DNA of 64,000 bases from Thermoanaerobaculia bacterium (GCA_963816185.1 CAWFJJ010000028.1:512001-576000), one strand, 5' to 3'; shown: positions 1 through 39,819, counted from the first letter of the stretch. Made by a program: numbers and translations. The notes: a model not told the origin generated them from the sequence alone.

Positions 1-918
1 GCGAGCGCCGACGACCGCATGGACTACGCGCGGCAGACTTCGCTGAGGGACGCCACCGCGGCCTTCACGGACGTCCTCCTCGCGAAGGAGCTGAAGGTCA
101 TCGCCGAGGAGACGCTCACTCAGCGCGAAAGGCACCTGGACCAGGCGCGCCGCCGCCTCGCGTTGGGGACGGCCACCGACTACGACCTCCTCGCCGCGGA
201 CGTCGCCGTCCAGAATGCGCGTCCCGAGGCGATTCGCGCCGTAAACCTCGTGGCGCTCGCCCTCGAGAAGCTCCGGATCCTGCTCGCGCTCGCGCGCCCG
301 ATCGCCGACGTGAAGGGGACGCTCGACGTCGACCTCCTCGCCGCGCCGCGATACGAGGACGCGCTCGAGAAGGCCCTCGCCGCGCGCCCTGACCTCAAGG
401 AGCTCGCCCACCAGGTCACGGTGGCGAAGGAGCTCGTGAAGATCGCGAAGACCGGCGACAAGCCGACGGTCGACTTCCGGGGTTCGGTCGGCTGGAAGGG
501 GATCAGCGCCGGCGATGTCTCGGCCGACGGCAAGACCTGGAACGCCGGCCTCTATCTCTCTTTCCCCTTCTTCGACGGCCTCGCGACCAAGGGGCGCGTC
601 CGCGAGTCGGAGAGCAACCTCAACACGCTCGAGATCGACGTCGCCCGGGCGCGGGACGCCGTGGCGCTCGACGTCAGGACCATCGTCGACGCCGTCCGCG
701 AGTCGTCCGAGATCGTGCGCGCGCTCTCTGGGACCGTGGAGCAGGCGAGGCGGCTCCTCGCGATGGCAGACAAGGGCTTCGAGCTGGGAGTGAAGACCCG
801 GATCGAAGTGGAGGACGCGCAGCTCGCCCTCCGCTCGGCCGAGGCGAGCCTCGCACGCGCCCGCCGCGAGCACATCGTGGCGCGGACGGGCCTGAGGTGG
901 GTGCAGGGGGAGCTCTAG
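1..918 (+). CDS. TolC family outer-membrane efflux protein (5' partial)
   Basis: Frame is open from base 1. Two OEP-like helical repeats and a beta-strand segment (WNAGLYLSFPFFDG); FELGVKTRIEVEDAQ is typical of the family. Confidence 0.85.
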   Translation, partial: ASADDRMDYARQTSLRDATAAFTDVLLAKELKVIAEETLTQRERHLDQARRRLALGTATDYDLLAADVAVQNARPEAIRAVNLVALALEKLRILLALARPIADVKGTLDVDLLAAPRYEDALEKALAARPDLKELAHQVTVAKELVKIAKTGDKPTVDFRGSVGWKGISAGDVSADGKTWNAGLYLSFPFFDGLATKGRVRESESNLNTLEIDVARARDAVALDVRTIVDAVRESSEIVRALSGTVEQARRLLAMADKGFELGVKTRIEVEDAQLALRSAEASLARARREHIVARTGLRWVQGEL

Positions 919-994
919 CAGGCTGGACGCACGAGACGCCCGTGGGCGGCGTCGGGACGAGCGCCGCGAGAACGCAGATGCTCTCGACGGTCGC

Positions 995-1023
995 TTGACA
1001 CATTTCTGAAGCCGTTCTAGTGT
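995..1023 (+). promoter_or_regulatory. sigma70-type promoter
   Basis: TTGACA (995-1000), 17 nt spacer, TAGTGT (1018-1023), upstream of a GGGAGG RBS and the ATG at 1095. Confidence 0.6.
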
Positions 1024-1094
1024 GCAAATGAGACAGAGTAGCAGTCACAACGACCTGTTACGTCTGGAATTCTGTCGTTTTCCCGGGAGGTTCC

Positions 1095-4000
1095 ATGTCA
1101 AACCCTGTTTTCCTGCAACGGCGTTTCGCCCTCGCGGTCTGCCTCCTCGGGCTCGCCCTCGGCACAGGGACGCTTCGTGCCCAGACTGCCGGGCAGAACG
1201 TCAACATCGTCTCGGGAACGAGCCTCCCGGGAGGAGACCCTTTCCTGCAGCGCCAGAACGAGCCGTCGCTGGCCGTCTCGAGCCGGAACCAGCTGCATCT
1301 CCTGGCGGGCGCAAACGACTACCGGACGGTCGATCTGCCGGGACTTCCCGACGGAGATGAAACGGGAGACGCCTGGCTGGGCGTGTTCAAGTCCGTGAAC
1401 GGCGGGCGGACGTGGACCAGCACGCTCGTGCCCGGCTACCCGCAGGACCCGTCCGCGCAGGGTCTGGCGTCGCCGATACACGGGTTCGCGGCCGCCTCGG
1501 ACCCGACGGTGCGCGCCGGCACCAACGGACTCTTCTACTACAGCGGCATCGCCTTCAACCGCGGCAGCAACGCGCCCGGTGCGATCTTCGTCGCCCGGTA
1601 CATCGACAACAACAACAAGGAGAACGGCGACCCGACGTCCTATCTCTCGACCGCGATCATCGACACCGGCAACTCCGGACAGTTCGTCGACAAGCCGTGG
1701 CTGGCGGTGGACGTTCCGCTGGCGGGCGCGCCCGTGTGCAGCATCCCGACCGCTCCGGCCCAGCTCTTTCCCGCGGGCAACGTCTACATCGCGTATGCGG
1801 TCTTCCCCGGCAGCAACAACAACCAGGTCGTCTTCGCCCGTTCGACCGACTGCGGGGCCACCTGGACCAAGCCCATCAAGGTCTCCGAGAGCCAGCAGTC
1901 GAACCAGGGAGTCGTCATGGCCGTCTCTCCGGCCACGGGCGGCGGCGCCGTCCCGCACCCGATCTACATCGCGTGGCGGCGATTCGCCACGTCCAACAGC
2001 ACCGACGCCATCCTGGTCGCCCAGTCCCTGGACGGTGGCCAGACCTTCTCGAAGGCGACCGTGGTCGCGAGCATCCTGCCCTTCGACCAGACCTCGATCG
2101 TCGGTTTCCGGACGAACGCGTTTCCCTCCATGGCCATCGACGCCACGGGACGCGTCTACCTCGTCTGGTCGCAGCGGGATCTGGCCGGCAACGCCCGAAT
2201 CGTGATCTCGTCCTCTTCCGACGGAGTCCTTTGGACGACGCCGGCCTCCGTCGATCCGGCATCCACCGGGCAGCAGTTCATGCCGTCGATCACCTTCACC
2301 GCGGGAAAGCTGATGGTCCTCTACTACGACTCCCGCGATGACCACACGATCGGCGTGCTCTCGAAAACGTGCCCGGCCGGTCAGACGTGCGTTCCCTTCG
2401 GACCGTTCTCCCAATACCAGCAGCCGGTCGCCGATATTGGCTTGCCCGGCCCACTTCCCGGCTTTGTCTCCGATGCGGGACTCCACCGCCGCCGCACAAT
2501 CGACGTGCGCACGACCCAGGCCGACCCGGGGGCCTCGCCGCTGTTCAGCCCGTCGGTGCGGGTCTCGAGCTACCGTTACGGCTCGAGCCCGACCTACGCC
2601 ACGACGCTGGGCCTTCCCTCAAACAGCCTCCTGCAGCTCCAGTACAACCCGCCGAGCCTTCCGATGTTCAAGCTGGGAACGACCGGTTTCATCGGCGACT
2701 ACATCGACTTCTCGGGCCCGGTGCTGGCTCCAGGCGCCAGCGGCTGGAACTTCGTCTCGCCGTCCAGCACCCAGATCGCCCACGCCGTCTGGGCCGACAA
2801 CCGGGACGTGCGCGCGCCGCGAACCCTGAATACGCTGGGCTTCCCCGACTGGACGCATTACACGCCCCCGTCCGTTTCGGGCACGGGCATCATCTGCTCG
2901 CCGGGCGACGCCGGCATGCGGAACCAGAACATCTACACGGCGCGCGTGTCGCAGGGCGTGCTCTTCCAGGCTCTCGAGAACGCGAAACCGTTGAGCGCGA
3001 CGCTTCAGCGCGGTTTCGTCGTCGTCGTGCAGAACCTGACGGGGGGCGCGAAGCGGTTCCAGCTCACGATCGCCAATCAGCCCACTGGCGGCCAGGCCTC
3101 GTTCTCGCAGACGAGCCTTCTCACCGTTCTCGACCTTCAGGTGGCTCCGCGCTCGAGCGTTTCGCGCACGATCTACGTGACGTCCACGGACGTCCACGCC
3201 TCCGTGGGTTCGAACCTCGCGGAGCTGGACTTCTCGACCGGGACCGTTCTCCCCGGCGGCATCCAGGGAGCGGTCGCGTTGAATCCGGACATCACGAACC
3301 CCGACATCACCAATCCGGACATTACGAATCCCGACATCACGAACCCGGACATCACGAACGCCGAGGTCTACAACCCCGACATCACGAATCCCGACATCAC
3401 GAATCCCGACATCACGAACCCCGACATCACGAACCCCGACATCACGAACCCCGACATCACGAATACTCTCCTGGCGAATCCCGACATCACGAACCCCGAT
3501 ATCACGAATCCCGATATCACGAATCCCGACATCACGAACCCCGATATCACGAACCCCGATATCACGAACACGAGCCTTTACGACGTCTCGGAAGCGAGCT
3601 CCACGGTCACCAACACCGGCAATACCTCGTCCTCGTACAACGTCAACCTGCTGGCGACGGACTCGGTCCCCGCGAGCTTCGGCGCTGGCGGCGGCAGTTT
3701 CCTGCAGCTGATCGTGTCGAAGAGCTTCGTCACGCAGACCATGCAGGAATGTGCGGAGCTTCCCGAGGTCAGCAACCTGGTCGTGGCCAACGTGACGAGG
3801 CCGGTCGTCAAGGACATCTCCAATACGCTGCCCGCCGACACGGACGCGGCGGTGGCGGCTGCCACGACCCCGGACGTCACGACCGGAGCGATCAGCAACG
3901 CCACGCTCGCTCTCCAGCCCGGCGAGTCGGCCCGCATCCGGGTTCGGGTCTTCCAGAACAAGTCCGACTCGGTCAAGTTCGATCCGCACAAGAGCCTCTC

Positions 4001-4349
4001 GCCCGTCGCCGTGGCGCACGGCGCGAACTCGAACAACGCGGCGAAGAAAGCCGCCTTCGCGATCCGGCTGACGATCGCGAGCAACAATCACAATCTTCCC
4101 TTGGCCGTTCCGAACAAGCCCTACAGCGCGACTCTGAAAGCCCTCGGCGGCAAGGTGACCCTCACCTGGTCGGTCATCAGCGGCGCGCTCCCGAACGGCC
4201 TCACGCTCAATGCCTCGACGGGAGTGATCTCCGGAACGCCGAAGGTGTCCGGGCCTTATCCCGTCTCCTTCTCCTTCACCGTCCGCGTCTCGGACCCGGT
4301 CGGGGATCAGTTCACGAAGGATCTGACGCTGGTCGTCAACAACAAGTAG
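1095..4349 (+). CDS. Secreted Asp-box/BNR beta-propeller protein with NPDIT pentapeptide repeats and a C-terminal putative Ig domain
   Basis: Signal peptide (..TLRA|Q); Asp-box-like SVNGGRTW, STDCGATW, SLDGGQTF; NPDIT array; C-terminal WSVISGALPNGLTLNASTGVISGTP (He_PIG-like). Confidence 0.75.
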   Translation: MSNPVFLQRRFALAVCLLGLALGTGTLRAQTAGQNVNIVSGTSLPGGDPFLQRQNEPSLAVSSRNQLHLLAGANDYRTVDLPGLPDGDETGDAWLGVFKSVNGGRTWTSTLVPGYPQDPSAQGLASPIHGFAAASDPTVRAGTNGLFYYSGIAFNRGSNAPGAIFVARYIDNNNKENGDPTSYLSTAIIDTGNSGQFVDKPWLAVDVPLAGAPVCSIPTAPAQLFPAGNVYIAYAVFPGSNNNQVVFARSTDCGATWTKPIKVSESQQSNQGVVMAVSPATGGGAVPHPIYIAWRRFATSNSTDAILVAQSLDGGQTFSKATVVASILPFDQTSIVGFRTNAFPSMAIDATGRVYLVWSQRDLAGNARIVISSSSDGVLWTTPASVDPASTGQQFMPSITFTAGKLMVLYYDSRDDHTIGVLSKTCPAGQTCVPFGPFSQYQQPVADIGLPGPLPGFVSDAGLHRRRTIDVRTTQADPGASPLFSPSVRVSSYRYGSSPTYATTLGLPSNSLLQLQYNPPSLPMFKLGTTGFIGDYIDFSGPVLAPGASGWNFVSPSSTQIAHAVWADNRDVRAPRTLNTLGFPDWTHYTPPSVSGTGIICSPGDAGMRNQNIYTARVSQGVLFQALENAKPLSATLQRGFVVVVQNLTGGAKRFQLTIANQPTGGQASFSQTSLLTVLDLQVAPRSSVSRTIYVTSTDVHASVGSNLAELDFSTGTVLPGGIQGAVALNPDITNPDITNPDITNPDITNPDITNAEVYNPDITNPDITNPDITNPDITNPDITNPDITNTLLANPDITNPDITNPDITNPDITNPDITNPDITNTSLYDVSEASSTVTNTGNTSSSYNVNLLATDSVPASFGAGGGSFLQLIVSKSFVTQTMQECAELPEVSNLVVANVTRPVVKDISNTLPADTDAAVAAATTPDVTTGAISNATLALQPGESARIRVRVFQNKSDSVKFDPHKSLSPVAVAHGANSNNAAKKAAFAIRLTIASNNHNLPLAVPNKPYSATLKALGGKVTLTWSVISGALPNGLTLNASTGVISGTPKVSGPYPVSFSFTVRVSDPVGDQFTKDLTLVVNNK
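3282..3581 (+). repeat. 15-bp coding tandem repeat, 20 units
   Basis: Consensus AAYCCSGAYATYACS. Encodes (NPDIT)5-NAEVY-(NPDIT)6-NTLLA-(NPDIT)6-NTSLY. Confidence 0.95.
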
Positions 4350-4356
4350 CCCTCAA

Positions 4357-7323
<2,967 letters not shown>

Positions 7324-31972: not shown

Positions 31973-33259
31973 TTAAGCCCCTTTCGGAGCAGGGCGAACG
32001 AGGACGGACAGGCCGTCGAGACCCGTGATCTCGACGTTCTCGCCTGCGGCGACCGGCGCGGACGACCGCGCCTCCCAGATCGCGCCGTCCACGAAGATCT
32101 TGCCCGTCGGTGCGAGGTCCGTCCGGGCGGCGACGATCTGACCCACGAGAACGCCGGCGCCGGTGCGGTCCGGCAGCCTCTTCACGGCGAGGGCCCTGAA
32201 GGAAAGCAGGGCGAGAATCGCCGCGGTCGTGACGGCGCCCGCCACGAGCGTCACGAGCTCGCCGCGCGGCGCGCCGGGCCGTTCAGGGAACAGCAGGAGC
32301 GCTCCCAGGATGATCGCGACCGCGCCGCCCACGGCAAGGACGCCGTGCGACGCGAGCTTGATCTCGAGAAAGAAGAACAGGGCTCCGAGCACGAGAAGGC
32401 CTACTCCGGCGCCGTTCACCGGCAGGACCGACATCGCGAAGAGCGCGAGGAGGAGACAGATCGCCCCGAGGACTCCGGGCAGGATCCCGCCCGGGTGCGA
32501 GAGCTCGGAATAGAGGCCTACGAGCCCGACGAGAAACAGGAGTCCCGCGAGCGCGGGGCTCGCGAGGACGCCGAGGAACTTCTCCCGCTTCGTCATCTCC
32601 TTGACCTCGGTCTTGAGGCCGGCCGTCTTCAGGATCACGTCGGGCTTTCCGACTCGCTTCGCGGTCCGCCCGTCGAGGCGCGTCAGGAGATCCGGAATGT
32701 CGCGCGCGATGACCTCGATCAGCTTTCGCTTCTCGGCTTCGGTCTCGGAATACGACGCCGCGTCGCTCACGGCCTTCACGGCATCGTCCACGGGACGGCC
32801 GCGGGGCTCGGTCACCGAGCGCAGGAGCGCCGAGACGTCCTGTCCGATTTTCTTCGCGATCGTCTTCGGTAGGTCTTCTCCGCTGCCGCCCACGGGCGAC
32901 GCGGCGCCCGCGTTCGTGCCCGGCGCCATCGCCGCGACGTCGCACGACATCAGGACGATGAATCCGGCGGAAGCCGCCTGCGACCCCGGAGGCGCGACCC
33001 ACCCCACGACGGGCACGCGCGAGCTGAGGATCGCCTGTGTGATCGTCCGTGTGGAATCGAGACGTCCGCCCGGCGTGTCGATGCGGATGATGACGAGCGG
33101 CGCCCGCGCGTCACCCGCCTCGTTGATCGCCTGCACGATGAAGCGCGCGCTGACCGCATTGATGTCCGTGTCGAGGTCCACCACGGGAACCGGCGCGGAC
33201 GGCGGGGCCGCCGAAACCGCAAGCGACCCGAAGAGGAGAACGGCCGCCACGAAGCGCAC
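31973..33259 (-). CDS. NfeD family membrane-bound serine protease (long form)
   Basis: [26 protein letters not shown] region, C-terminal OB fold (GAIWEARS); paired with slipin. Confidence 0.92.
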
Positions 33260-33292
33260 GAGGCCATTATAGGTTCGTGCTAGAACGCGCCG

Positions 33293-34162
33293 ATGCGCTG
33301 GAAGCCTGTCGACGTTCTGACGACGCTGTTCGCGACCGCCCTCCTGGCGGCCGGGCTGATGCGGTTCGAAGCACTGGAAAACCGGGGGGTGCTTCTGAGA
33401 ATGGGGCTGGTTGCCGTCGTTCCGGCGCTGATCGCCATGCTCCGTGGCCGCAATCCGAACCCGTCTAGGAGTCTTCAAATTCTCCTGGATTTCTACATCA
33501 TCGGCTGCGTCGTCGTGATCTTCGACGGGCTCGGCCCGCTCATTCGTGCCGTCCACCCCGTCGATTACGACGCCGCGCTCATCGCGTTCGACCGCGCGCT
33601 CTTCGGAACGGACCCGACCGTGGCGCTCGAGAAGATCGCGACGCCCTTCCTCTCGGACGTCCTGACGGTCTTCTACGCGCTCTACTACTTCCACCCCATC
33701 GTCCTCGGGACGCTCGTGCTCCTCGACGACCGCGATCGCCCCGCGCTCGAGCGCGATTTCCCCCGCTTCGCGTTCGTCATCGTGTTCGTGTTCTACGTCA
33801 GCTACTTGTGCTACTTCCTCGTGCCCGCGATCGGCCCCCGCTACACGCTCGTACACGCCGGGCCGCTGCCGCGGGGCGCGATCTCGCAGGCGATCGACCA
33901 CACGCTCGACGTCCTCGAGAAGAACAAGCGCGACTGCTTTCCCTCGGGCCACACGATGGTCCTCGTGGCCATCCTCCTCGAGGCGCGTCGCCGATCGAAG
34001 AAGACGTTCTGGGCATTCCTGCCGTTCGCGGTCGGCCTGATTCTCGCCACGGTCTACTGCCGGTACCACTACGTCGCGGACGTGCTCGCGGGCCTTGCCC
34101 TCGCATTCGTGACGGTCCTGCTCGGGAACGCGCTTTACAGGCGCTTCGCCACCAGCCGATAG
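33293..34162 (+). CDS. PAP2 superfamily, Aur1/IPC-synthase-like membrane protein
   Basis: Multiple TM helices; YFLVPAIGP, DCFPSGHT, RYHYVADVLAG. Confidence 0.8.
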   Translation: MRWKPVDVLTTLFATALLAAGLMRFEALENRGVLLRMGLVAVVPALIAMLRGRNPNPSRSLQILLDFYIIGCVVVIFDGLGPLIRAVHPVDYDAALIAFDRALFGTDPTVALEKIATPFLSDVLTVFYALYYFHPIVLGTLVLLDDRDRPALERDFPRFAFVIVFVFYVSYLCYFLVPAIGPRYTLVHAGPLPRGAISQAIDHTLDVLEKNKRDCFPSGHTMVLVAILLEARRRSKKTFWAFLPFAVGLILATVYCRYHYVADVLAGLALAFVTVLLGNALYRRFATSR

Positions 34163-35262
34163 CGCCGGTAGATCCGGCCGCCGAAGATTTCGAGGGGCTT
34201 GAGGATGTCGAGGTTGTCCTCGAGCATCCACGAGAACTCCGCCCATTTGTGGCCGATGCGGAGGCCTTCCTTCATGGCCTCGTAATAGAGGACGGCGTCG
34301 ATGCCCCGTTTGCGGTACTCCGGTAGCACCCCGAGCGCCATCGTGCGGCAGCGGTCGATCTTCTTCTTCTCCGTCAGGAACCTCAGCCAGCCGAAGGGAA
34401 ACAGCGACCCGCCCATCTTCACGAGGACCTGGTTGAAATCCGGAAGCGCGAGATGGAACGCGGCGGGCTTCCCGTCGATCTCGGCGAAGAGGATGTAAGG
34501 CGGGTAAATGACGGGCTTGAGCTTCTTCGCCATCGCGTCGATCTCCTCGGACGTCATCGGGACGAAGCCCCAGTTCTTCTCCCACGCCCCGTTGTAGATG
34601 GTCTTCACGATCGCGAGGTCTTCGTCGAACTTGTTCATGCGGATCGGCCGCACGACGAGGTTCGGCTCGCGTCGCCGCACGCCCTCGGCGATGCGCGCGA
34701 GCCGCTTGAACGAGACGTCGCTCACGGGCGCGAGGATCGCGACGAGGTCTTTCTCCTTCGAATAGCCCGCGTCCGCAAAGAGGTCGAGGTAGTACGCGGG
34801 GTTGTACGTCATCATGAGAAACGGCAGCCCCGGGTCGCTCTCCTGGGGCACGAATGCCCCCACCTCGTCGTTGAGCGATGGGTTCGCGGGGCCGCGCAGC
34901 CGGTCGCAGCCCGGCAGCATCTCGCGCACGGCTGCCTCGGCGGCACGGAGAAGAGCGGTCGAGACCTCCCGGTCGTTCTCACTTTCGAAGAATCCGAAGA
35001 ATCCCGTCTTCTCCCCGTGGACCCTGTTGTGTTCATCGTCGACGATCGCCGCGATTCGCCCGACGACCCGGCCGTCTTTTCGCGCCAGAAACAGTCTTCT
35101 CTTCGCGTGCTTCCAGAAAGGGTTCCTCTTTTCGTCAAGAATCCAGCGAACGTCCGAGCGCAGCGGTGGCGGCCAGCTCGGGTCGCCGGCGTAGATCCGA
35201 TACGCCAGCTCGACGAATTCGCGGAGCGCACGGGGCGAGTCGACGGATTCGATCTTGATCAT
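34135..35262 (-). CDS. GNAT-fold N-acyltransferase, candidate bacterial ceramide synthase (bCerS/YghO-like)
   Basis: IY.GDP.W.PPL, NPFW, VGRIAA, GFFGFFE, MTYNPAYY, NWGFVP, LGVLPEYRKRG, SWMLEDN; directly downstream of the SPT-like gene. Confidence 0.75.
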   Translation of the reverse strand: MIKIESVDSPRALREFVELAYRIYAGDPSWPPPLRSDVRWILDEKRNPFWKHAKRRLFLARKDGRVVGRIAAIVDDEHNRVHGEKTGFFGFFESENDREVSTALLRAAEAAVREMLPGCDRLRGPANPSLNDEVGAFVPQESDPGLPFLMMTYNPAYYLDLFADAGYSKEKDLVAILAPVSDVSFKRLARIAEGVRRREPNLVVRPIRMNKFDEDLAIVKTIYNGAWEKNWGFVPMTSEEIDAMAKKLKPVIYPPYILFAEIDGKPAAFHLALPDFNQVLVKMGGSLFPFGWLRFLTEKKKIDRCRTMALGVLPEYRKRGIDAVLYYEAMKEGLRIGHKWAEFSWMLEDNLDILKPLEIFGGRIYRRYRLVAKRL

Positions 35263-35291
35263 GCTGCCTTGAGGAAATTCGCCTTCGGATT

Positions 35292-35385
35292 GAAGATTGT
35301 CTTAGAAGGGAGATGAAGCCGCGGCGAACGGGAGCGCCAGAGCGACGCGTGAAGGGCCTCGCCCCTTCATGCTTCTAAGAAATCC
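35292..35385. repeat. TTCTTAGAA-family inverted pair (spt/GNAT junction)
   Basis: GAAGATTGTCTTAGAAGG (35292) and TTCTAAGAAATCC (35373); internal GAAGGG..CCCTTC hairpin. Confidence 0.7.
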
Positions 35386-35405
35386 GAAAACCCCCGGTCC
35401 CCATC

Positions 35406-36683
35406 CTACGAAACCAGCCCCAGCTCCCGGCCCACCTTGTGGAACGCCTCGAGGGCGCGCGTGAGGTGGGCCTTCGTGTGCGTGGCCATGTAGGACGTCC
35501 GGATGAGGGCGCGGCCGGGGGGCGAGCCGGGGCTGACGACGGCGTTCACGAAGACCCCCTCGTCGTCCAGACGCGCGGCCATCTTGAACGCAAGCTCGTC
35601 CGGCCCGACGACGATCGGGATGACGGGCGTCTGGGAGTTGCCGCAGTCGAACCCGATGGCGCGCAGGGCCGTCAACATGAACCGCGTGTTCTCCCAAAGA
35701 CGCTCGCGGCGCTCGGGCTCGTTCTCGATGATGTCGAGCGCGGCGAGGACGGCCGCGACGCAGGCCGGCGGCGGCGCCGCCGTGAACATGAGCGCGCGAG
35801 CCCTGTGCTTGATGAACTTGATGACCTCCGGCTCGCCGACGACGAAGCCTCCCACGGTCGCGAGCGACTTCGAGAACGTACCCATGATGAGGTCGACTTT
35901 GTGCTCGAGGCCGAAGTGCTCGGCGGTGCCGCGACCGTGCTTGCCGAGGACGCCGACGCCGTGCGCATCGTCGATCATGAACGCCACGTCGTAGTCGTCG
36001 CAGATGCTGACGTACTCGGGGACGGGCGCGATATCGCCCTCCATCGAGAAGACGCCGTCGACTACGAGGATCCGCCCGTTGCGGTCGCCGTTCAGGGCGA
36101 GAAGCCGGCGCAGGTCAGCCGGATCGTTGTGCTTGAACTTCTTGACGTCGGCCCCGACCGCGAGGCGCGCGCCGTCGTAGATGCAGGCGTGGTCCTGCCG
36201 GTCGAGGTAGATCGCGTCGCCCTTGCCCGCGAGCGAGGACAGGACGCCGAGGTTGACGAGAAAGCCCGTCGAAAACGTCACGCAGGCCGGTTTCTCCATG
36301 AAAACGGCGAGGCGCTCTTCCAGCTCGACGTGGATGTCGAGCGTCCCGTTCAGGAGGCGGCTGCCGGCGCAGCCCGCGCCGTACTTCCTGACGGCCTCGA
36401 TCGCGCGCTCCTTGATCTTCGGATGCGAGGTCAGGCCGAGGTAGTTGTTCGACCCCAGCATGACCATCTCCCGGCCCCCCATCATGACGACCGGGTCCTG
36501 GCCCGACTCGATGGTCCTGAAGAAGGTAAACAGGCCGGCGGCGCGAAGCTCGTCGGGTACCGTATAAGTTCGACACTTATCGAAAAGTGAGCGGCTCAAG
36601 GCGGGTTCCGCGATGACATTCGACCGACCAAGCATCGATTCATCCTCTGCGGCTGCGGGCCGCGCCCCGTGGTGCTGTCTCAT
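35406..36683 (-). CDS. PLP-dependent alpha-oxoamine synthase, probable serine palmitoyltransferase
   Basis: GSNNYLGL, GCAGSRLLNGTLDIH, DGVFSMEGD, DDAHG, GTFSKSLA (SPT-type lysine motif). BioF/Kbl not excluded. Confidence 0.75.
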   Translation of the reverse strand: MRQHHGARPAAAEDESMLGRSNVIAEPALSRSLFDKCRTYTVPDELRAAGLFTFFRTIESGQDPVVMMGGREMVMLGSNNYLGLTSHPKIKERAIEAVRKYGAGCAGSRLLNGTLDIHVELEERLAVFMEKPACVTFSTGFLVNLGVLSSLAGKGDAIYLDRQDHACIYDGARLAVGADVKKFKHNDPADLRRLLALNGDRNGRILVVDGVFSMEGDIAPVPEYVSICDDYDVAFMIDDAHGVGVLGKHGRGTAEHFGLEHKVDLIMGTFSKSLATVGGFVVGEPEVIKFIKHRARALMFTAAPPPACVAAVLAALDIIENEPERRERLWENTRFMLTALRAIGFDCGNSQTPVIPIVVGPDELAFKMAARLDDEGVFVNAVVSPGSPPGRALIRTSYMATHTKAHLTRALEAFHKVGRELGLVS

Positions 36684-36718
36684 TTCGTGTCCTCTGTCCT
36701 TGGAATTTTACCACCTCG

Positions 36719-37705
36719 CTACGAGATCCAGCCACGCGCGAGATACCACTCCCAGGTGAGCCGTGCGCCAACCGCAAAATCCGTTCGAAATGGCTGACCC
36801 AGAGCAACTTGCGCATCCGACACATCGCAGATCCAGGCGTTCTGGAGCAGCTCGTTTGCTTTATCGGCGTTGAAGACCGGAGGCCCCTTCGCGAGCGCCG
36901 AAAGGGCGCCGACCAGGGAGCCCGCCGCCCGAATCGCCGCGGCGGGAATCGGAAAGAGCCAAGGGCGCCTGGGAGGAAGGGTCGCGAGCGTCTCGGCGAT
37001 GCCCCGGTATTCGAGGACCTCCGGGTGGGCGACGTAAAACGTCTCCCCTTTTCCTCCCCGGTCGAGCGCTCCGAGGACGGCCCGGGCCACGTCTTCGGCG
37101 TACACCATCTGGATGCGAGGCTTCCCGCCCGCGAGAACCGGCACGAAGCCCCGGGAGGCCGCGACGAACAGGTCCCTGATCGCCGTTTCGCGGGGCCCGT
37201 ACACCGCGCTCGGGCGAAGAATCGTGAAGGCGAGACCCGGCGCGTTTCGGACCGCTTCCTCGCCGGCCAGCTTCGACCGACCGTAGGACGAGACGGGGCG
37301 CGGGGAGTCGGCCACGCACACAGGGGCTCCGTTTCGGCTCGGGCCGCCCGCGGCCTGGGAAGACACGAGGACGATGTGAGCGTCCGGCCCCGCCTTCCGA
37401 ACCGCCGAGACGACGTTTGCCGTGCCGGCCGCGTTCGCGGCCATGTATTCAGCCTCGCTCCGGGCCGACGTCTTCCCGGCGACGTGCACCACGGCACTCG
37501 CACCCGCCACCAGCGCCTCGAGCGATTCCGGCCTCCTCACGTCGCCCGGAACGATCTCGACCGGAGTGTCTTTCAGCCAGCCGGGGTTCTCGGGACGGCG
37601 CGCGAGCGCGCGCACCCGGTAGCCCGCCGCGAGAAGGGCGTCGGAGACGTGGCTGCCCACGAATCCACTCCCTCCCGTGAGGGCGACGAGTTCGCCGCGC
37701 GGCAT
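36719..37705 (-). CDS. Extended SDR, NAD-dependent epimerase/dehydratase family (candidate ceramide or ketosphinganine reductase)
   Basis: TGGSGFVG, VSSQAA, YGRSK, LRPSAVYGP. Confidence 0.8.
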   Translation of the reverse strand: MPRGELVALTGGSGFVGSHVSDALLAAGYRVRALARRPENPGWLKDTPVEIVPGDVRRPESLEALVAGASAVVHVAGKTSARSEAEYMAANAAGTANVVSAVRKAGPDAHIVLVSSQAAGGPSRNGAPVCVADSPRPVSSYGRSKLAGEEAVRNAPGLAFTILRPSAVYGPRETAIRDLFVAASRGFVPVLAGGKPRIQMVYAEDVARAVLGALDRGGKGETFYVAHPEVLEYRGIAETLATLPPRRPWLFPIPAAAIRAAGSLVGALSALAKGPPVFNADKANELLQNAWICDVSDAQVALGQPFRTDFAVGARLTWEWYLARGWIS

Positions 37706-37743: not shown

Positions 37744-39819
37744 ATGCAAAAGAGCCTGTCCGCAGCCGCCCTGGCCCTCGTGCTCGCCGCGCCCGCCTCA
37801 GCCCTCGAGGCACCCCGCAAGATCGTCGACTACGACATCAAGGTCTCCCTCGACCCTGAGACGAAGGTCGTCGAGGGCGTCGAGACGCTTAAGTGGACGA
37901 ACCCGTCAGACGGACCCGTCGGCGAGCTGCGCTTCCACCTCTACTGGAATGCCTTCCGCAACGACCGGTCGACCTTCTTCAAGGAGTCGGGCGGGCGTCT
38001 CCGATGGGATACCGCGGACACCGTCAAAGGTTGGGGCTATACCGACGTGACCTCGATGAAGTGGGACGGCAAAGAGCTCGTGAAGGCGGCCCGCTTCGAG
38101 AGCCCTGACGACGGCAACCCCGACGACCGGACGGTCCTCGTCGTCCCGCTCCCCCGCCCCGTCGCTCCCGGCGAGACCGCGGCCCTCGCGATCGCGTGGA
38201 AGGCAAAGGTCCCGAGGGTCTACGCGCGCGCGGGCTACGTCCGCGACTTCTTCATGTTCGGCCAGTGGTTCCCTGAGATCGGCGTCTACGAGCCGAAGGG
38301 CCGCCGCCGCCGGACGGACCCGGGCTGGAACTGCCACCAGTACCACGCGAACTCCGAGTTCTACGCGGACTGGGGCGACTACCGCGTCGCGATCACGGTG
38401 CCCGAGAAGTTTGTCGTCGGCTCGGCGGGCGCCCTCGTGGATACGAAGATCGCGGGCGGGAAAAAGACTCTGACGTTCGAGCAGAAGTCGATCCACAACT
38501 TCGCCTTCACGGCCGACCCGCGGTACGTCGTCGTCGAGGACGTCTTCGACCCCGCGAAGGACATTCCGGCCGGCGAGGTCGCGCGCGCCTCGAAGACGCT
38601 CGGGCGCTCCGAGACGGACCTCCGCGCCGGGTTTCACAAGGTCGCGATTCGGCTCTACCTCCAGCCTGATCACCGCGCCTTCGACCGCCGGCACATCGAG
38701 GCGCAGAAGTGGGCGCTCGCGTGGACGGGTCTCTGGGCGTTCCCGTACCCGTACGCGCAGGTCTCGATCGTCGACCCGCCCGAAGACGGCATGGGTGCGG
38801 CCGGCATGGAGTACGAGACGATCTACACGACGCTCTCGCTCAAATGGATGTCGCACTGGCCATGCGACCGGCTCTACTTCCCCGAGATGGTCACGATCCA
38901 CGAGTTCACGCACGGCTACTGGATGGGCCTCCTCGCGTCGAACGAGTTCGAGGAGAGCTGGATGGACGAGGGGATCAACACCTTCACCGAGCAGGTGATG
39001 GTGGACCGCAAATACGGCTCGTACGTGAGCGTTCCTCCGGGAGTCGGTTTCAGCGACGAGGAGGTGAATCGCGCGCAGGCCGCGCTCACGCAGGACCACG
39101 ATCCGATCCTCGCGGCCTCGTGGAAGTACGCGACCGAGAGCTCCTATGGGCGCAACTCCTACCCGCAGACCGGCACGACGATCCAGCAGATCCGCAACCT
39201 CCTCGGCGAGGAGACGTTCTGGCGCGCGTTCCGCGGTTACGCCGAGCGCTGGCGTTTCGACCACCCGGCGTCCGAGGACTTCTTCGACTTCATGCGCGCG
39301 AGCGGGAACCCGCTCGTCGCCGACCTCATCCGGAAAACGTGGTACGGCCCCGGCTGGGTCGACTTCGCGATTCTCGATGCGCGCACGAGGGCCGACGACG
39401 GCTTCACGGGCTTCGACGACGCCGAGAAGGCCGTGAACTTCGACCCGGATCCGAAGAAGAAGCCGAAGAAGGAGCCCGACGGGCAGAAGCACAAGGGCCC
39501 ATGGCAGTCGCTCGTCGTCGTCGGCCGCGACGGCGACATCGAGATGCCGGCCCGCGTCGTGATGACGCTCAAGGACGGCACGAAGATCGAGCGCACGTGG
39601 GACGGCGCGAGCGGGTGGGTCAAGTACCACGTGACGTCGTCGTCGCCGCTCGTGAAGGCCGAGGTGGACCCGGAGCGCCGGACGGTCCTCGACCGCAACC
39701 CCTGGAACAACGCCCGCTATACGAAGAACTACGAAGGCCCGTCGGCCGCCGCCAAAGCCCGGACCTACGCCCTGCATCTCGTGGAGATCCTGCTCTCCAC
39801 TCTGTGGGGCGTTCTGTGA
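37744..39819 (+). CDS. M1 family metallo-aminopeptidase (secreted)
   Basis: Signal peptide, AGMEY, HEFTH-x18-E (WMDEG). Confidence 0.9.
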   Translation: MQKSLSAAALALVLAAPASALEAPRKIVDYDIKVSLDPETKVVEGVETLKWTNPSDGPVGELRFHLYWNAFRNDRSTFFKESGGRLRWDTADTVKGWGYTDVTSMKWDGKELVKAARFESPDDGNPDDRTVLVVPLPRPVAPGETAALAIAWKAKVPRVYARAGYVRDFFMFGQWFPEIGVYEPKGRRRRTDPGWNCHQYHANSEFYADWGDYRVAITVPEKFVVGSAGALVDTKIAGGKKTLTFEQKSIHNFAFTADPRYVVVEDVFDPAKDIPAGEVARASKTLGRSETDLRAGFHKVAIRLYLQPDHRAFDRRHIEAQKWALAWTGLWAFPYPYAQVSIVDPPEDGMGAAGMEYETIYTTLSLKWMSHWPCDRLYFPEMVTIHEFTHGYWMGLLASNEFEESWMDEGINTFTEQVMVDRKYGSYVSVPPGVGFSDEEVNRAQAALTQDHDPILAASWKYATESSYGRNSYPQTGTTIQQIRNLLGEETFWRAFRGYAERWRFDHPASEDFFDFMRASGNPLVADLIRKTWYGPGWVDFAILDARTRADDGFTGFDDAEKAVNFDPDPKKKPKKEPDGQKHKGPWQSLVVVGRDGDIEMPARVVMTLKDGTKIERTWDGASGWVKYHVTSSSPLVKAEVDPERRTVLDRNPWNNARYTKNYEGPSAAAKARTYALHLVEILLSTLWGVL

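Follow-up and report, generated by a model that had tools for sequence, protein, structure and literature searches.

We analyzed a 64,000-nucleotide stretch of DNA from a Thermoanaerobaculia bacterium (GCA_963816185.1, CAWFJJ010000028.1:512001-576000), hereafter called the window, which is part of a 5.09-Mb genome of 30 contigs that is 94.9% complete. Our analysis centred on four adjacent genes at positions 33293-37705, encoding a short-chain dehydrogenase/reductase (SDR), an alpha-oxoamine synthase (AOS), a GNAT-superfamily N-acyltransferase and a PAP2-type membrane protein. Judged from comparisons of sequence, gene order and predicted fold, this locus likely encodes the known bacterial route to dihydroceramide together with a step that adds a head group. 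An earlier reading of the window, made from its sequence alone (the sequence-only reading), had described a compact ceramide locus in which the SDR, AOS and GNAT genes are co-oriented and meet a convergent PAP2/Aur1-like gene. All four open reading frames (ORFs) were found where it had placed them, with the expected classes by Pfam, and the end coordinate it had given, 37705, is exactly the ATG of the SDR gene. Its interpretation of the genes as a ceramide locus is supported by the comparisons below, and its view of the host as a probable acidobacterium agrees with the labels (Thermoanaerobaculia or Acidobacteria) carried by the nearest relatives of the GNAT and PAP2 proteins. The four genes are as follows:

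33293-34162, plus strand: PAP2_3-family integral membrane protein, Aur1/inositol-phosphoceramide-synthase-like, candidate ceramide phospho-head-group transferase; 289 aa; PF14378, 65 bits
34135-35262, minus strand: GNAT-superfamily N-acyltransferase, candidate member of the bCerS/YghO family; 375 aa; Acetyltransf_1, 31.2 bits
35406-36683, minus strand: AOS, candidate Spt of the 'CFB' type, which uses acyl-CoA; 425 aa counted from the first ATG; Aminotran_1_2, 182.4 bits
36719-37705, minus strand: extended-SDR reductase, CerR candidate; 328 aa from the ATG; Pfam Epimerase, 133.5 bits

Sequence comparison places the synthase nearest to serine palmitoyltransferases (SPTs) that have been characterised, and it groups with other synthases linked to GNAT genes, apart from BioF and Kbl. 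Among NCBIfam families its top score was with NF047600 SerpalmtaseCFB (517.6 bits), followed by TIGR01825 (423.8 bits), Kbl (380.2 bits) and bioF (375.7 bits). Among structures in the PDB, the best solved relative was the SPT of Sphingobacterium multivorum (422 bits, aligned over residues 33-420; PDB 3a2b and 8guh; PMC10196870), followed by Thermus BioF/KBL (334 bits), Sphingomonas SPT (278 bits) and KBL (270 bits), with cysteate-C-fatty acyltransferase (233 bits), BioF (225 bits), ALAS (192 bits) and CqsA (124 bits) lower in the list. Thus, the profile comparison against Spt, BioF and Kbl that had been suggested as a check placed an SPT model and an SPT structure at the top. Both motifs quoted in the sequence-only reading, GCAGSRLLNGTLDIH and GTFSKSLA, are present in the synthase, and its argument that the lysine motif GTFSKS favours SPT over BioF or Kbl held within our data set: serine precedes the lysine in 60/60 GNAT-linked synthases (xTFSK), whereas glycine does so in 4/4 BioF/Kbl rows (GK).

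We also mapped onto the alignment 16 active-site and interface residues described for S. multivorum SPT (PMC10196870), with the residues checked by script. The residues K272, H165, D238 and H241 of the synthase, which are the catalytic lysine and the pyridoxal-phosphate-binding His/Asp/His expected of a fold-type I AOS, align to Lys244, His138, Asp210 and His213 of S. multivorum SPT, and 14 of the 16 mapped residues are identical (Asn52, Tyr54, Ala79, Gly80, Ser81, His138, Ser185, Asp210, Ala212, His213, Thr241, Ser243, Lys244 and Met271); the two substitutions are Ser53 to Asn and Phe83 to Leu. Since the majority of these positions are shared family-wide, the matches are consistent with the use of serine rather than proof of it. 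Furthermore, a quick maximum-likelihood tree was computed for 64 rows, comprising the window synthase, 57 synthases from related loci, the two Kbl proteins of the same genome, E. coli BioF and Kbl, and the synthases of the E. coli PN43 and Streptomyces clusters described below; the partial synthases of two loci (L005 and L067), with fewer than 300 aligned residues, were left out. The four BioF/Kbl rows were split from the 60 others with a Shimodaira-Hasegawa-like approximate likelihood ratio (SH-aLRT) support of 95.5 in this quick search, and the window synthase thus stands on the other side of the branch from BioF and Kbl, in line with the phylogenetic expectation of the sequence-only reading.

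The GNAT and SDR proteins had been proposed as ceramide-type partners of the synthase, and this proposal is favoured both by the linkage of their families to such synthases across phyla and by their homology to the GNAT and SDR proteins of Spt clusters in named bacteria. The GNAT protein is 34.6% identical to E. coli YghO (E 2e-67) and 32.9% identical to a Sphingomonas GNAT (E 5e-63), in both cases over the full length. Pfam Acetyltransf_1 matches it at residues 45-122 and sub-threshold Acetyltransf_6/7 matches lie at 292-343, so that both halves show GNAT-like matches. The family is large (7761 representatives with E<=1e-3, and 1222 under the stricter limit of E<=1e-30) and includes natural AOS-GNAT fusion proteins of 780 aa (P0132) and 648 aa (P0209, truncated). 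A search of the PDB returned only distant GNATs, the family being one without a solved structure, and a search of a protein atlas returned generic GNAT clusters only; in the literature we found nothing on the function of yghO. From these sequence relationships we regard the protein as a candidate of the bCerS/YghO family, with N-acylation of a sphingoid base as its predicted activity. The SDR carries both extended-SDR motifs, GxxGxxG in the form GGSGFVG (residue 11) and YxxxK in the form YGRSK (residue 141), and aligns with the SDR from the Spt cluster of E. coli PN43 at 27.6% identity (E 1e-29). Hydropathy scans showed no hydrophobic segments in the GNAT or the SDR, which fits the topology reported for bCerS and CerR, neither of which has predicted transmembrane regions (PMC11087976). 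One further GNAT relative, P0122 (784 aa), holds two tandem GNAT units in a single protein.

The clusters that link the locus to named bacteria lie in three records. In the E. coli PN43 record NZ_MG591698.1 (L120), yghO stands beside genes for a fatty acyl-AMP ligase, an epimerase-family SDR, an acyl carrier protein (ACP) and a synthase, with copies of lptF and lptG adjoining, and the synthase reaches 599.9 bits on the NF047599 Spt equivalog, thereby passing its cut-off of 500. This gene set matches the published Caulobacter set, which is given as CC_1165 to CC_1162, the N-acyltransferase CC_1154, and LptF2/LptG2 encoded by CC_1156/CC_1155 (bioRxiv 10.1101/2024.02.16.580706). A plasmid of Sphingomonas parapaucimobilis carries lptF, lptG, a desaturase gene and a GNAT gene in a row, and a plasmid of Streptomyces sp. 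NBC_01001 carries an AOS-GNAT-SDR operon (L119:4721-9247). The identities listed for this operon are 40.3%, 42.0% and 32.8%, with 40.3% given for the GNAT over nearly its full length and 32.8% for the SDR (E 3e-32). A tblastn search of the plasmid collection returned 44 records.

To determine how regularly the genes occur together, we counted linkage at 80 GNAT loci from many phyla, obtained from a one-genome-per-species scan searched with the four window proteins. A synthase was present in the fetched DNA of 59/80 loci; it lay within 300 bp of the GNAT gene in 52/80 and directly upstream on the same strand in 48/80. An SDR homologue was present within 6 kb of the GNAT gene in 47/80 loci, and 44/80 had both synthase and SDR. 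A PAP2 homologue was found at 22/80 loci, within 300 bp of the GNAT gene at 15/80 and in the convergent orientation of the window at 11/80, and all three partners (synthase, SDR and PAP2) were present at 16/80. With a synthase within 300 bp at 52 of the 80 loci, this arrangement of genes is far beyond chance. The occurrence of PAP2 beside the GNAT gene recurs in Acidobacteriota, Nitrospirota, Gemmatimonadota, Eisenbacteria, Verrucomicrobiota and delta-proteobacterial metagenome-assembled genomes (MAGs).

The fourth gene encodes a PAP2 protein with seven hydrophobic segments that is probably, on the basis of profile and structure-model comparisons, an Aur1-like head-group transferase whose head group is probably something other than inositol. 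In an alignment of 22 sequences from several phyla, P217, S218, H220, H259, Y260 and D263 are invariant, giving the motifs Pro-Ser-x-His and His-Tyr-x-x-Asp. A profile of these 22 relatives found yeast AUR1 first (9vj3, E 1.7e-7, positions 63-279 of 296), and the catalytic His/His/Asp of Aur1, the catalytic subunit of the yeast inositol-phosphoceramide synthase, is kept. An AlphaFold model built with the same alignment (predicted local distance difference test 92.3, predicted template-modelling score 0.90) was compared with solved structures by Foldseek: at E<=0.001 only Aur1 was returned, as 9vj4 (E 3.3e-5, template-modelling (TM) score 0.60, 288 aligned columns) and 9ivc, with a structural-alignment identity between the PAP2 protein and Aur1 of 16%. 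The Aur1-like assignment of the sequence-only reading is therefore matched at the top of both the profile and the predicted-fold comparison. A bacterial precedent for such a step is BT_1522, a Bacteroides Aur1 homologue described as a proven phosphoinositol-dihydroceramide synthase, according to which bacteria put a phospho-head group on dihydroceramide with this fold (PMC9246714). The window protein falls far under the cut-off of the corresponding equivalog (NF052609 PI-dihydroceramide synthase, 31.8 bits vs 480), and its head group probably differs from that of BT_1522. The myo-inositol-phosphate synthase domain PF01658 had no match in the genome, at its stated completeness, and because no inositol-phosphate synthase was found there the head group is probably not inositol. 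For these two reasons, the missed NF052609 cut-off and the lack of a PF01658 match, we did not file the protein as an inositol-phosphoceramide synthase.

Taken in order, the proposed pathway would begin with the Spt candidate, which would condense L-serine with a long-chain acyl-CoA to give 3-ketosphinganine. The soluble GNAT of the bCerS/YghO family would then N-acylate the long-chain base, and the CerR-like extended SDR would reduce the 3-keto group. Finally, the Aur1-like PAP2 protein would, through its His/His/Asp motif, most likely move a phospho-head group from a glycerophospholipid to the ceramide and release diacylglycerol, with phosphatidylethanolamine or phosphatidylglycerol probably a more likely donor than phosphatidylinositol. 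The substrates, the products, the order of the steps and the head group are all predicted here from homology, gene context and fold.

The step most open to another explanation is the last one. The core pathway could be right while PAP2 acts simply as a lipid phosphate phosphatase (PgpB, LpxE or undecaprenyl-diphosphatase type, or one for ceramide 1-phosphate), in which case its position at the locus would be incidental or regulatory. The PAP2 C2 and C3 motifs are common to phosphatases, the NCBIfam models for LpxE (26.4 bits) and PgpB (18.3 bits) match weakly, and the PAP2_C model reaches 25.9 bits, slightly under its cut-off of 27; B. subtilis PgpB (5jki) came third in the Foldseek search (E 8.4e-3, TM 0.43), with human SMSr far lower. 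The gene also lies on the opposite strand from the other three and is missing from 58/80 GNAT loci, and PF14378 is a broad family that matches proteins of E. coli and B. subtilis, which have no sphingolipids, and occurs in three genes of the present genome. These points tell against a head-group transferase, as does the score on the PI-dihydroceramide synthase equivalog. However, Aur1 matches nearly the whole protein in both the profile and the fold comparison, whereas PgpB-type phosphatases match the same 22-relative profile only in the motif region (211-286, E about 1e-3; PgpB 8e-4), and PAP2 recurs beside the GNAT gene in several phyla. We therefore consider a phosphatase somewhat unlikely and favour an Aur1-like head-group transferase.

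Other explanations concern the synthase and, with it, the product of the whole locus. If the synthase used alanine, glycine or another amino acid in place of serine, the product would be an N-acyl amino-ketone or amino-alcohol lipid, 1-deoxy or non-canonical in some other way, rather than a genuine ceramide. SPTs are reported to take alanine and glycine at low efficiency (PMC10196870), Ding et al. speculate on other amino acids for Spt-like enzymes (PMC11334938), and the NCBIfam Spt cut-off is missed; but the 14 S. multivorum residues retained include Asn52, Gly80 and Ser243, whose hold on the serine hydroxyl is water-mediated, and an Aur1-like partner requires the C1 hydroxyl that only serine supplies, so that we regard a non-serine substrate as improbable. 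A pathway to capnine-type sulfonolipids would employ the same enzyme classes, with the synthase as a cysteate fatty acyltransferase and the SDR and GNAT as dehydrocapnine reductase and N-acyltransferase, and cysteate fatty acyltransferases are described as relatives of SPT (PMC13692747). Yet the solved cysteate acyltransferase scored well below S. multivorum SPT (233 vs 422 bits), and published trees put the cysteate acyltransferases on a branch apart from SPTs (PMC13692747). The best match in the genome to the cysteate synthase model TIGR03844 was 65.7 against a cut-off of 324.9, a weak point because that model was built for a coenzyme-M enzyme. Taken together, these data make a sulfonolipid product very improbable. 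The synthase could also be a housekeeping BioF or a third Kbl, with the GNAT, SDR and PAP2 genes as unrelated neighbours; its bioF and Kbl scores are substantial, both under the respective cut-offs, and the genome yielded no further bioF candidate. Against this stand the tree separation, the linkage to GNAT genes at 52/80 loci and the AOS-GNAT fusion proteins. Furthermore, the genome holds two other AOS paralogues (contigs C5 and C29), both above the Kbl cut-offs and thus genuine glycine C-acetyltransferases, and bioB was not found in the genome at its 94.9% completeness. Because both paralogues pass the Kbl cut-offs and neither bioB nor another bioF candidate was found, a role of the synthase in biotin synthesis is unlikely, and a housekeeping BioF or Kbl can hardly be the right identification. 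The BioF, Kbl and sulfonolipid readings were accordingly rejected, leaving the SPT assignment as the preferred one. The lack of a detected bioB or distinct bioF suggests, separately, that the organism is a biotin auxotroph.

Several observations weigh against the assignment of the locus to ceramide synthesis. The synthase lies under the cut-off of each NCBIfam Spt equivalog (NF047600, 517.6 vs 640 bits; NF047599, 398.8 vs 500; NF047603, 300.1 vs 670), to be read with the fact that these models are taxon-specific and that, in a control search, even Caulobacter fell under the cut-off of the alphaproteobacterial model. Our tree includes a single Spt reference, the synthase from the E. coli PN43 cluster (above the NF047599 cut-off), and no Spt of proven biochemistry. 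No NCBIfam model matches the GNAT, and neither Pfam nor NCBIfam has a model for the bCerS family. The SDR reaches no NCBIfam equivalog, its best match being HpnA (116.1 bits vs a cut-off of 367.65), and a hydropathy scan of the 328-aa protein found no hydrophobic or signal-like stretch, whereas Caulobacter CerR is reported to be periplasmic (PMC11087976). The homology to proven ceramide enzymes goes via named intermediates and gene context. Linkage is also incomplete: no synthase was present in the fetched DNA of 21/80 loci, three of which had less than 1.5 kb of upstream DNA, and two of the closest relatives depart from the compact order. At L005, whose GNAT is 82% identical, about 5 kb separates synthase and GNAT and the cluster is broken, and at L004, with a 90% identical GNAT, no synthase lies within 6 kb upstream. 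Finally, a promoter scan of the locus gave no hit, and terminator-like sites were at chance level (3 vs 3.8 expected). Weighed against the SPT-like profile scores, the tree, the conserved linkage and the Aur1-like fold, these points leave a ceramide pathway as the likely function of the locus.

Compared with characterised systems, the locus shares the three enzyme classes of Caulobacter crescentus, namely Spt (CC_1162/CCNA_01220), bCerS (CC_1154/CCNA_01212) and CerR (CC_1164/CCNA_01222) (PMC11087976; PMC11334938; bioRxiv 10.1101/2024.02.16.580706), and in the Caulobacter-type clusters of Sphingomonas and E. coli the place of CC_1154 is taken by a homologue of its GNAT. In contrast to the Caulobacter and E. 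coli clusters, the locus contains no ACP, acyl-ACP synthetase or lptF/lptG paralogue, and all its genes are contiguous. The Spt candidate is nearer to the acyl-CoA-using Bacteroidota type than to that of Caulobacter, scoring 517.6 bits with the CFB model vs 300.1 bits with the alphaproteobacterial model, and no sign of export was seen for the SDR. The order of steps that we propose, from Spt through N-acylation to keto-dihydroceramide and then reduction, is the same as that proposed for Bacteroides fragilis, whose CerS (BF9343_4218) and CerR (BF9343_4240) were defined by knock-outs (bioRxiv 10.1101/2023.05.23.541633); here the likeness is one of pathway description. In sphingolipid-producing Bacteroidota the three genes are described as not close together (PMC11334938, citing Stankeviciute et al.), whereas in the window they are adjacent. 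In this respect the locus resembles the metagenome clusters of Ding et al. (2024), in which Spt-like, bCerS and CerR genes are co-localised (PMC11334938).

Among soil bacteria, the Acidobacteriota belong to the most abundant groups. The locus offers a defined set of four clonable genes that bears on whether members of this phylum make sphingolipids, a question that is also asked in a soil lipidomics study in which ceramides correlated with a sequence variant of Vicinamibacteraceae (PMC9969633). Bacterial Spt, bCerS and CerR genes are reported to be often clustered (Ding et al., 2024, PMC11334938), and from Black Sea MAGs the same study predicts producers of the Spt-like kind in 38 phyla, which brings the overall number to 40; its main text does not name Acidobacteriota, the phyla being listed in a figure and in Supplementary Data 2. 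Within the sphingolipid literature that our searches reached, we found no published report of a ceramide gene cluster in Acidobacteriota and nothing on Thermoanaerobaculia together with ceramide. Because the core pathway is already established, the gain lies in annotation and in the list of lipid-making taxa and not in mechanism; the locus, from a soil-type acidobacterium, is a solid but unremarkable addition to a pathway that has already been predicted across many bacterial phyla, with the head-group enzyme as its less settled part. In this latter respect the PAP2 protein is a candidate for the poorly defined bacterial enzyme that adds non-inositol phosphate-linked head groups to ceramide. 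We tentatively propose, as something quite possible though short of probable, that the PAP2_3 gene represents an as yet unassigned family of phosphosphingolipid synthases, bacterial and Aur1-like, that would take the head group from phosphatidylethanolamine or phosphatidylglycerol and not from phosphatidylinositol. Thermoanaerobaculia and other Acidobacteriota would then be producers of phosphosphingolipids in soil, which would explain the ceramide signals that correlate with the phylum.

Within the locus, the three biosynthetic genes are co-oriented on the minus strand and the PAP2 gene lies on the plus strand, convergent with the GNAT gene, the two overlapping by 28 bp at their stop-proximal 3' ends. 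The AOS gene has a second ATG at 36635, which would give a protein of 409 aa and is the likelier start because the alignment to solved SPTs begins at residue 33. The gap between the SDR and AOS genes is 35 bp (83 bp with the second AOS start) and that between the AOS and GNAT genes 143 bp; the open frame of the SDR extends beyond the ATG at 37705 to a GTG at 37813. To the left of the locus lie genes for Lnt, a radical-SAM protein with a weak match to the lipoyl-synthase N-domain, and SPOR, SPFH and NfeD proteins, and to the right a gene for an M1 peptidase. None of these flanking genes is related to lipid head groups, biotin or threonine, and no bio or tdh gene is among the neighbours, as the sequence-only reading had remarked when it set BioF and Kbl aside. 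A minus-strand ORF at 31973-34585 (870 codons) overlaps the PAP2 gene; the real NfeD occupies only its last 425 codons (31973-33250), and the remainder is an artefact of the 67% G+C content. Soil metatranscriptome contigs from one library, mostly 88-95% identical, cover the PAP2, GNAT and synthase genes within 33493-36661. These contigs may be transcribed copies of relatives or carried-over DNA, and since DNA can occur in such libraries the cover does not prove transcription; uncovered stretches are uninformative. In a search of sequencing runs for DNA of the locus, the best holders contained less than half of the sampled words.

The distribution of the GNAT in Acidobacteriota is patchy. A match at E<=1e-40 was found in 39/151 sampled genomes, including the present one and the unpublished G227, and by genus in 26/105; of 8 genomes from four further families of the same class (f3-f6), none gave a match. 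At L005, the interval between synthase and GNAT (700-6000) encodes cytochrome bd oxidase subunits I and II (cydAB), an FHA/OmpR-type regulator and a beta-propeller ORF. In the class of genome G001, which holds L082 and carries the label Sulfitobacter sp. MAG, a label that together with the class does not fit expectations for Roseobacteraceae, no Caulobacter-type landmark was found by the search; a GNAT homologue was present in 123/201 sampled genomes, mostly at 36-43% identity.

The clusters in named bacteria showed some further features of their own. The E. coli PN43 set adjoins the glc operon and gives some E. coli the full Caulobacter-type complement of ceramide genes; its record NZ_MG591698.1, 354 kb in length and filed as a plasmid, appears to be chromosomal. 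In the Streptomyces plasmid, a condensation-domain gene follows the AOS-GNAT-SDR operon, its start codon overlapping the preceding stop codon, a hint that the sphingoid product may undergo another acylation or an amide-forming step.

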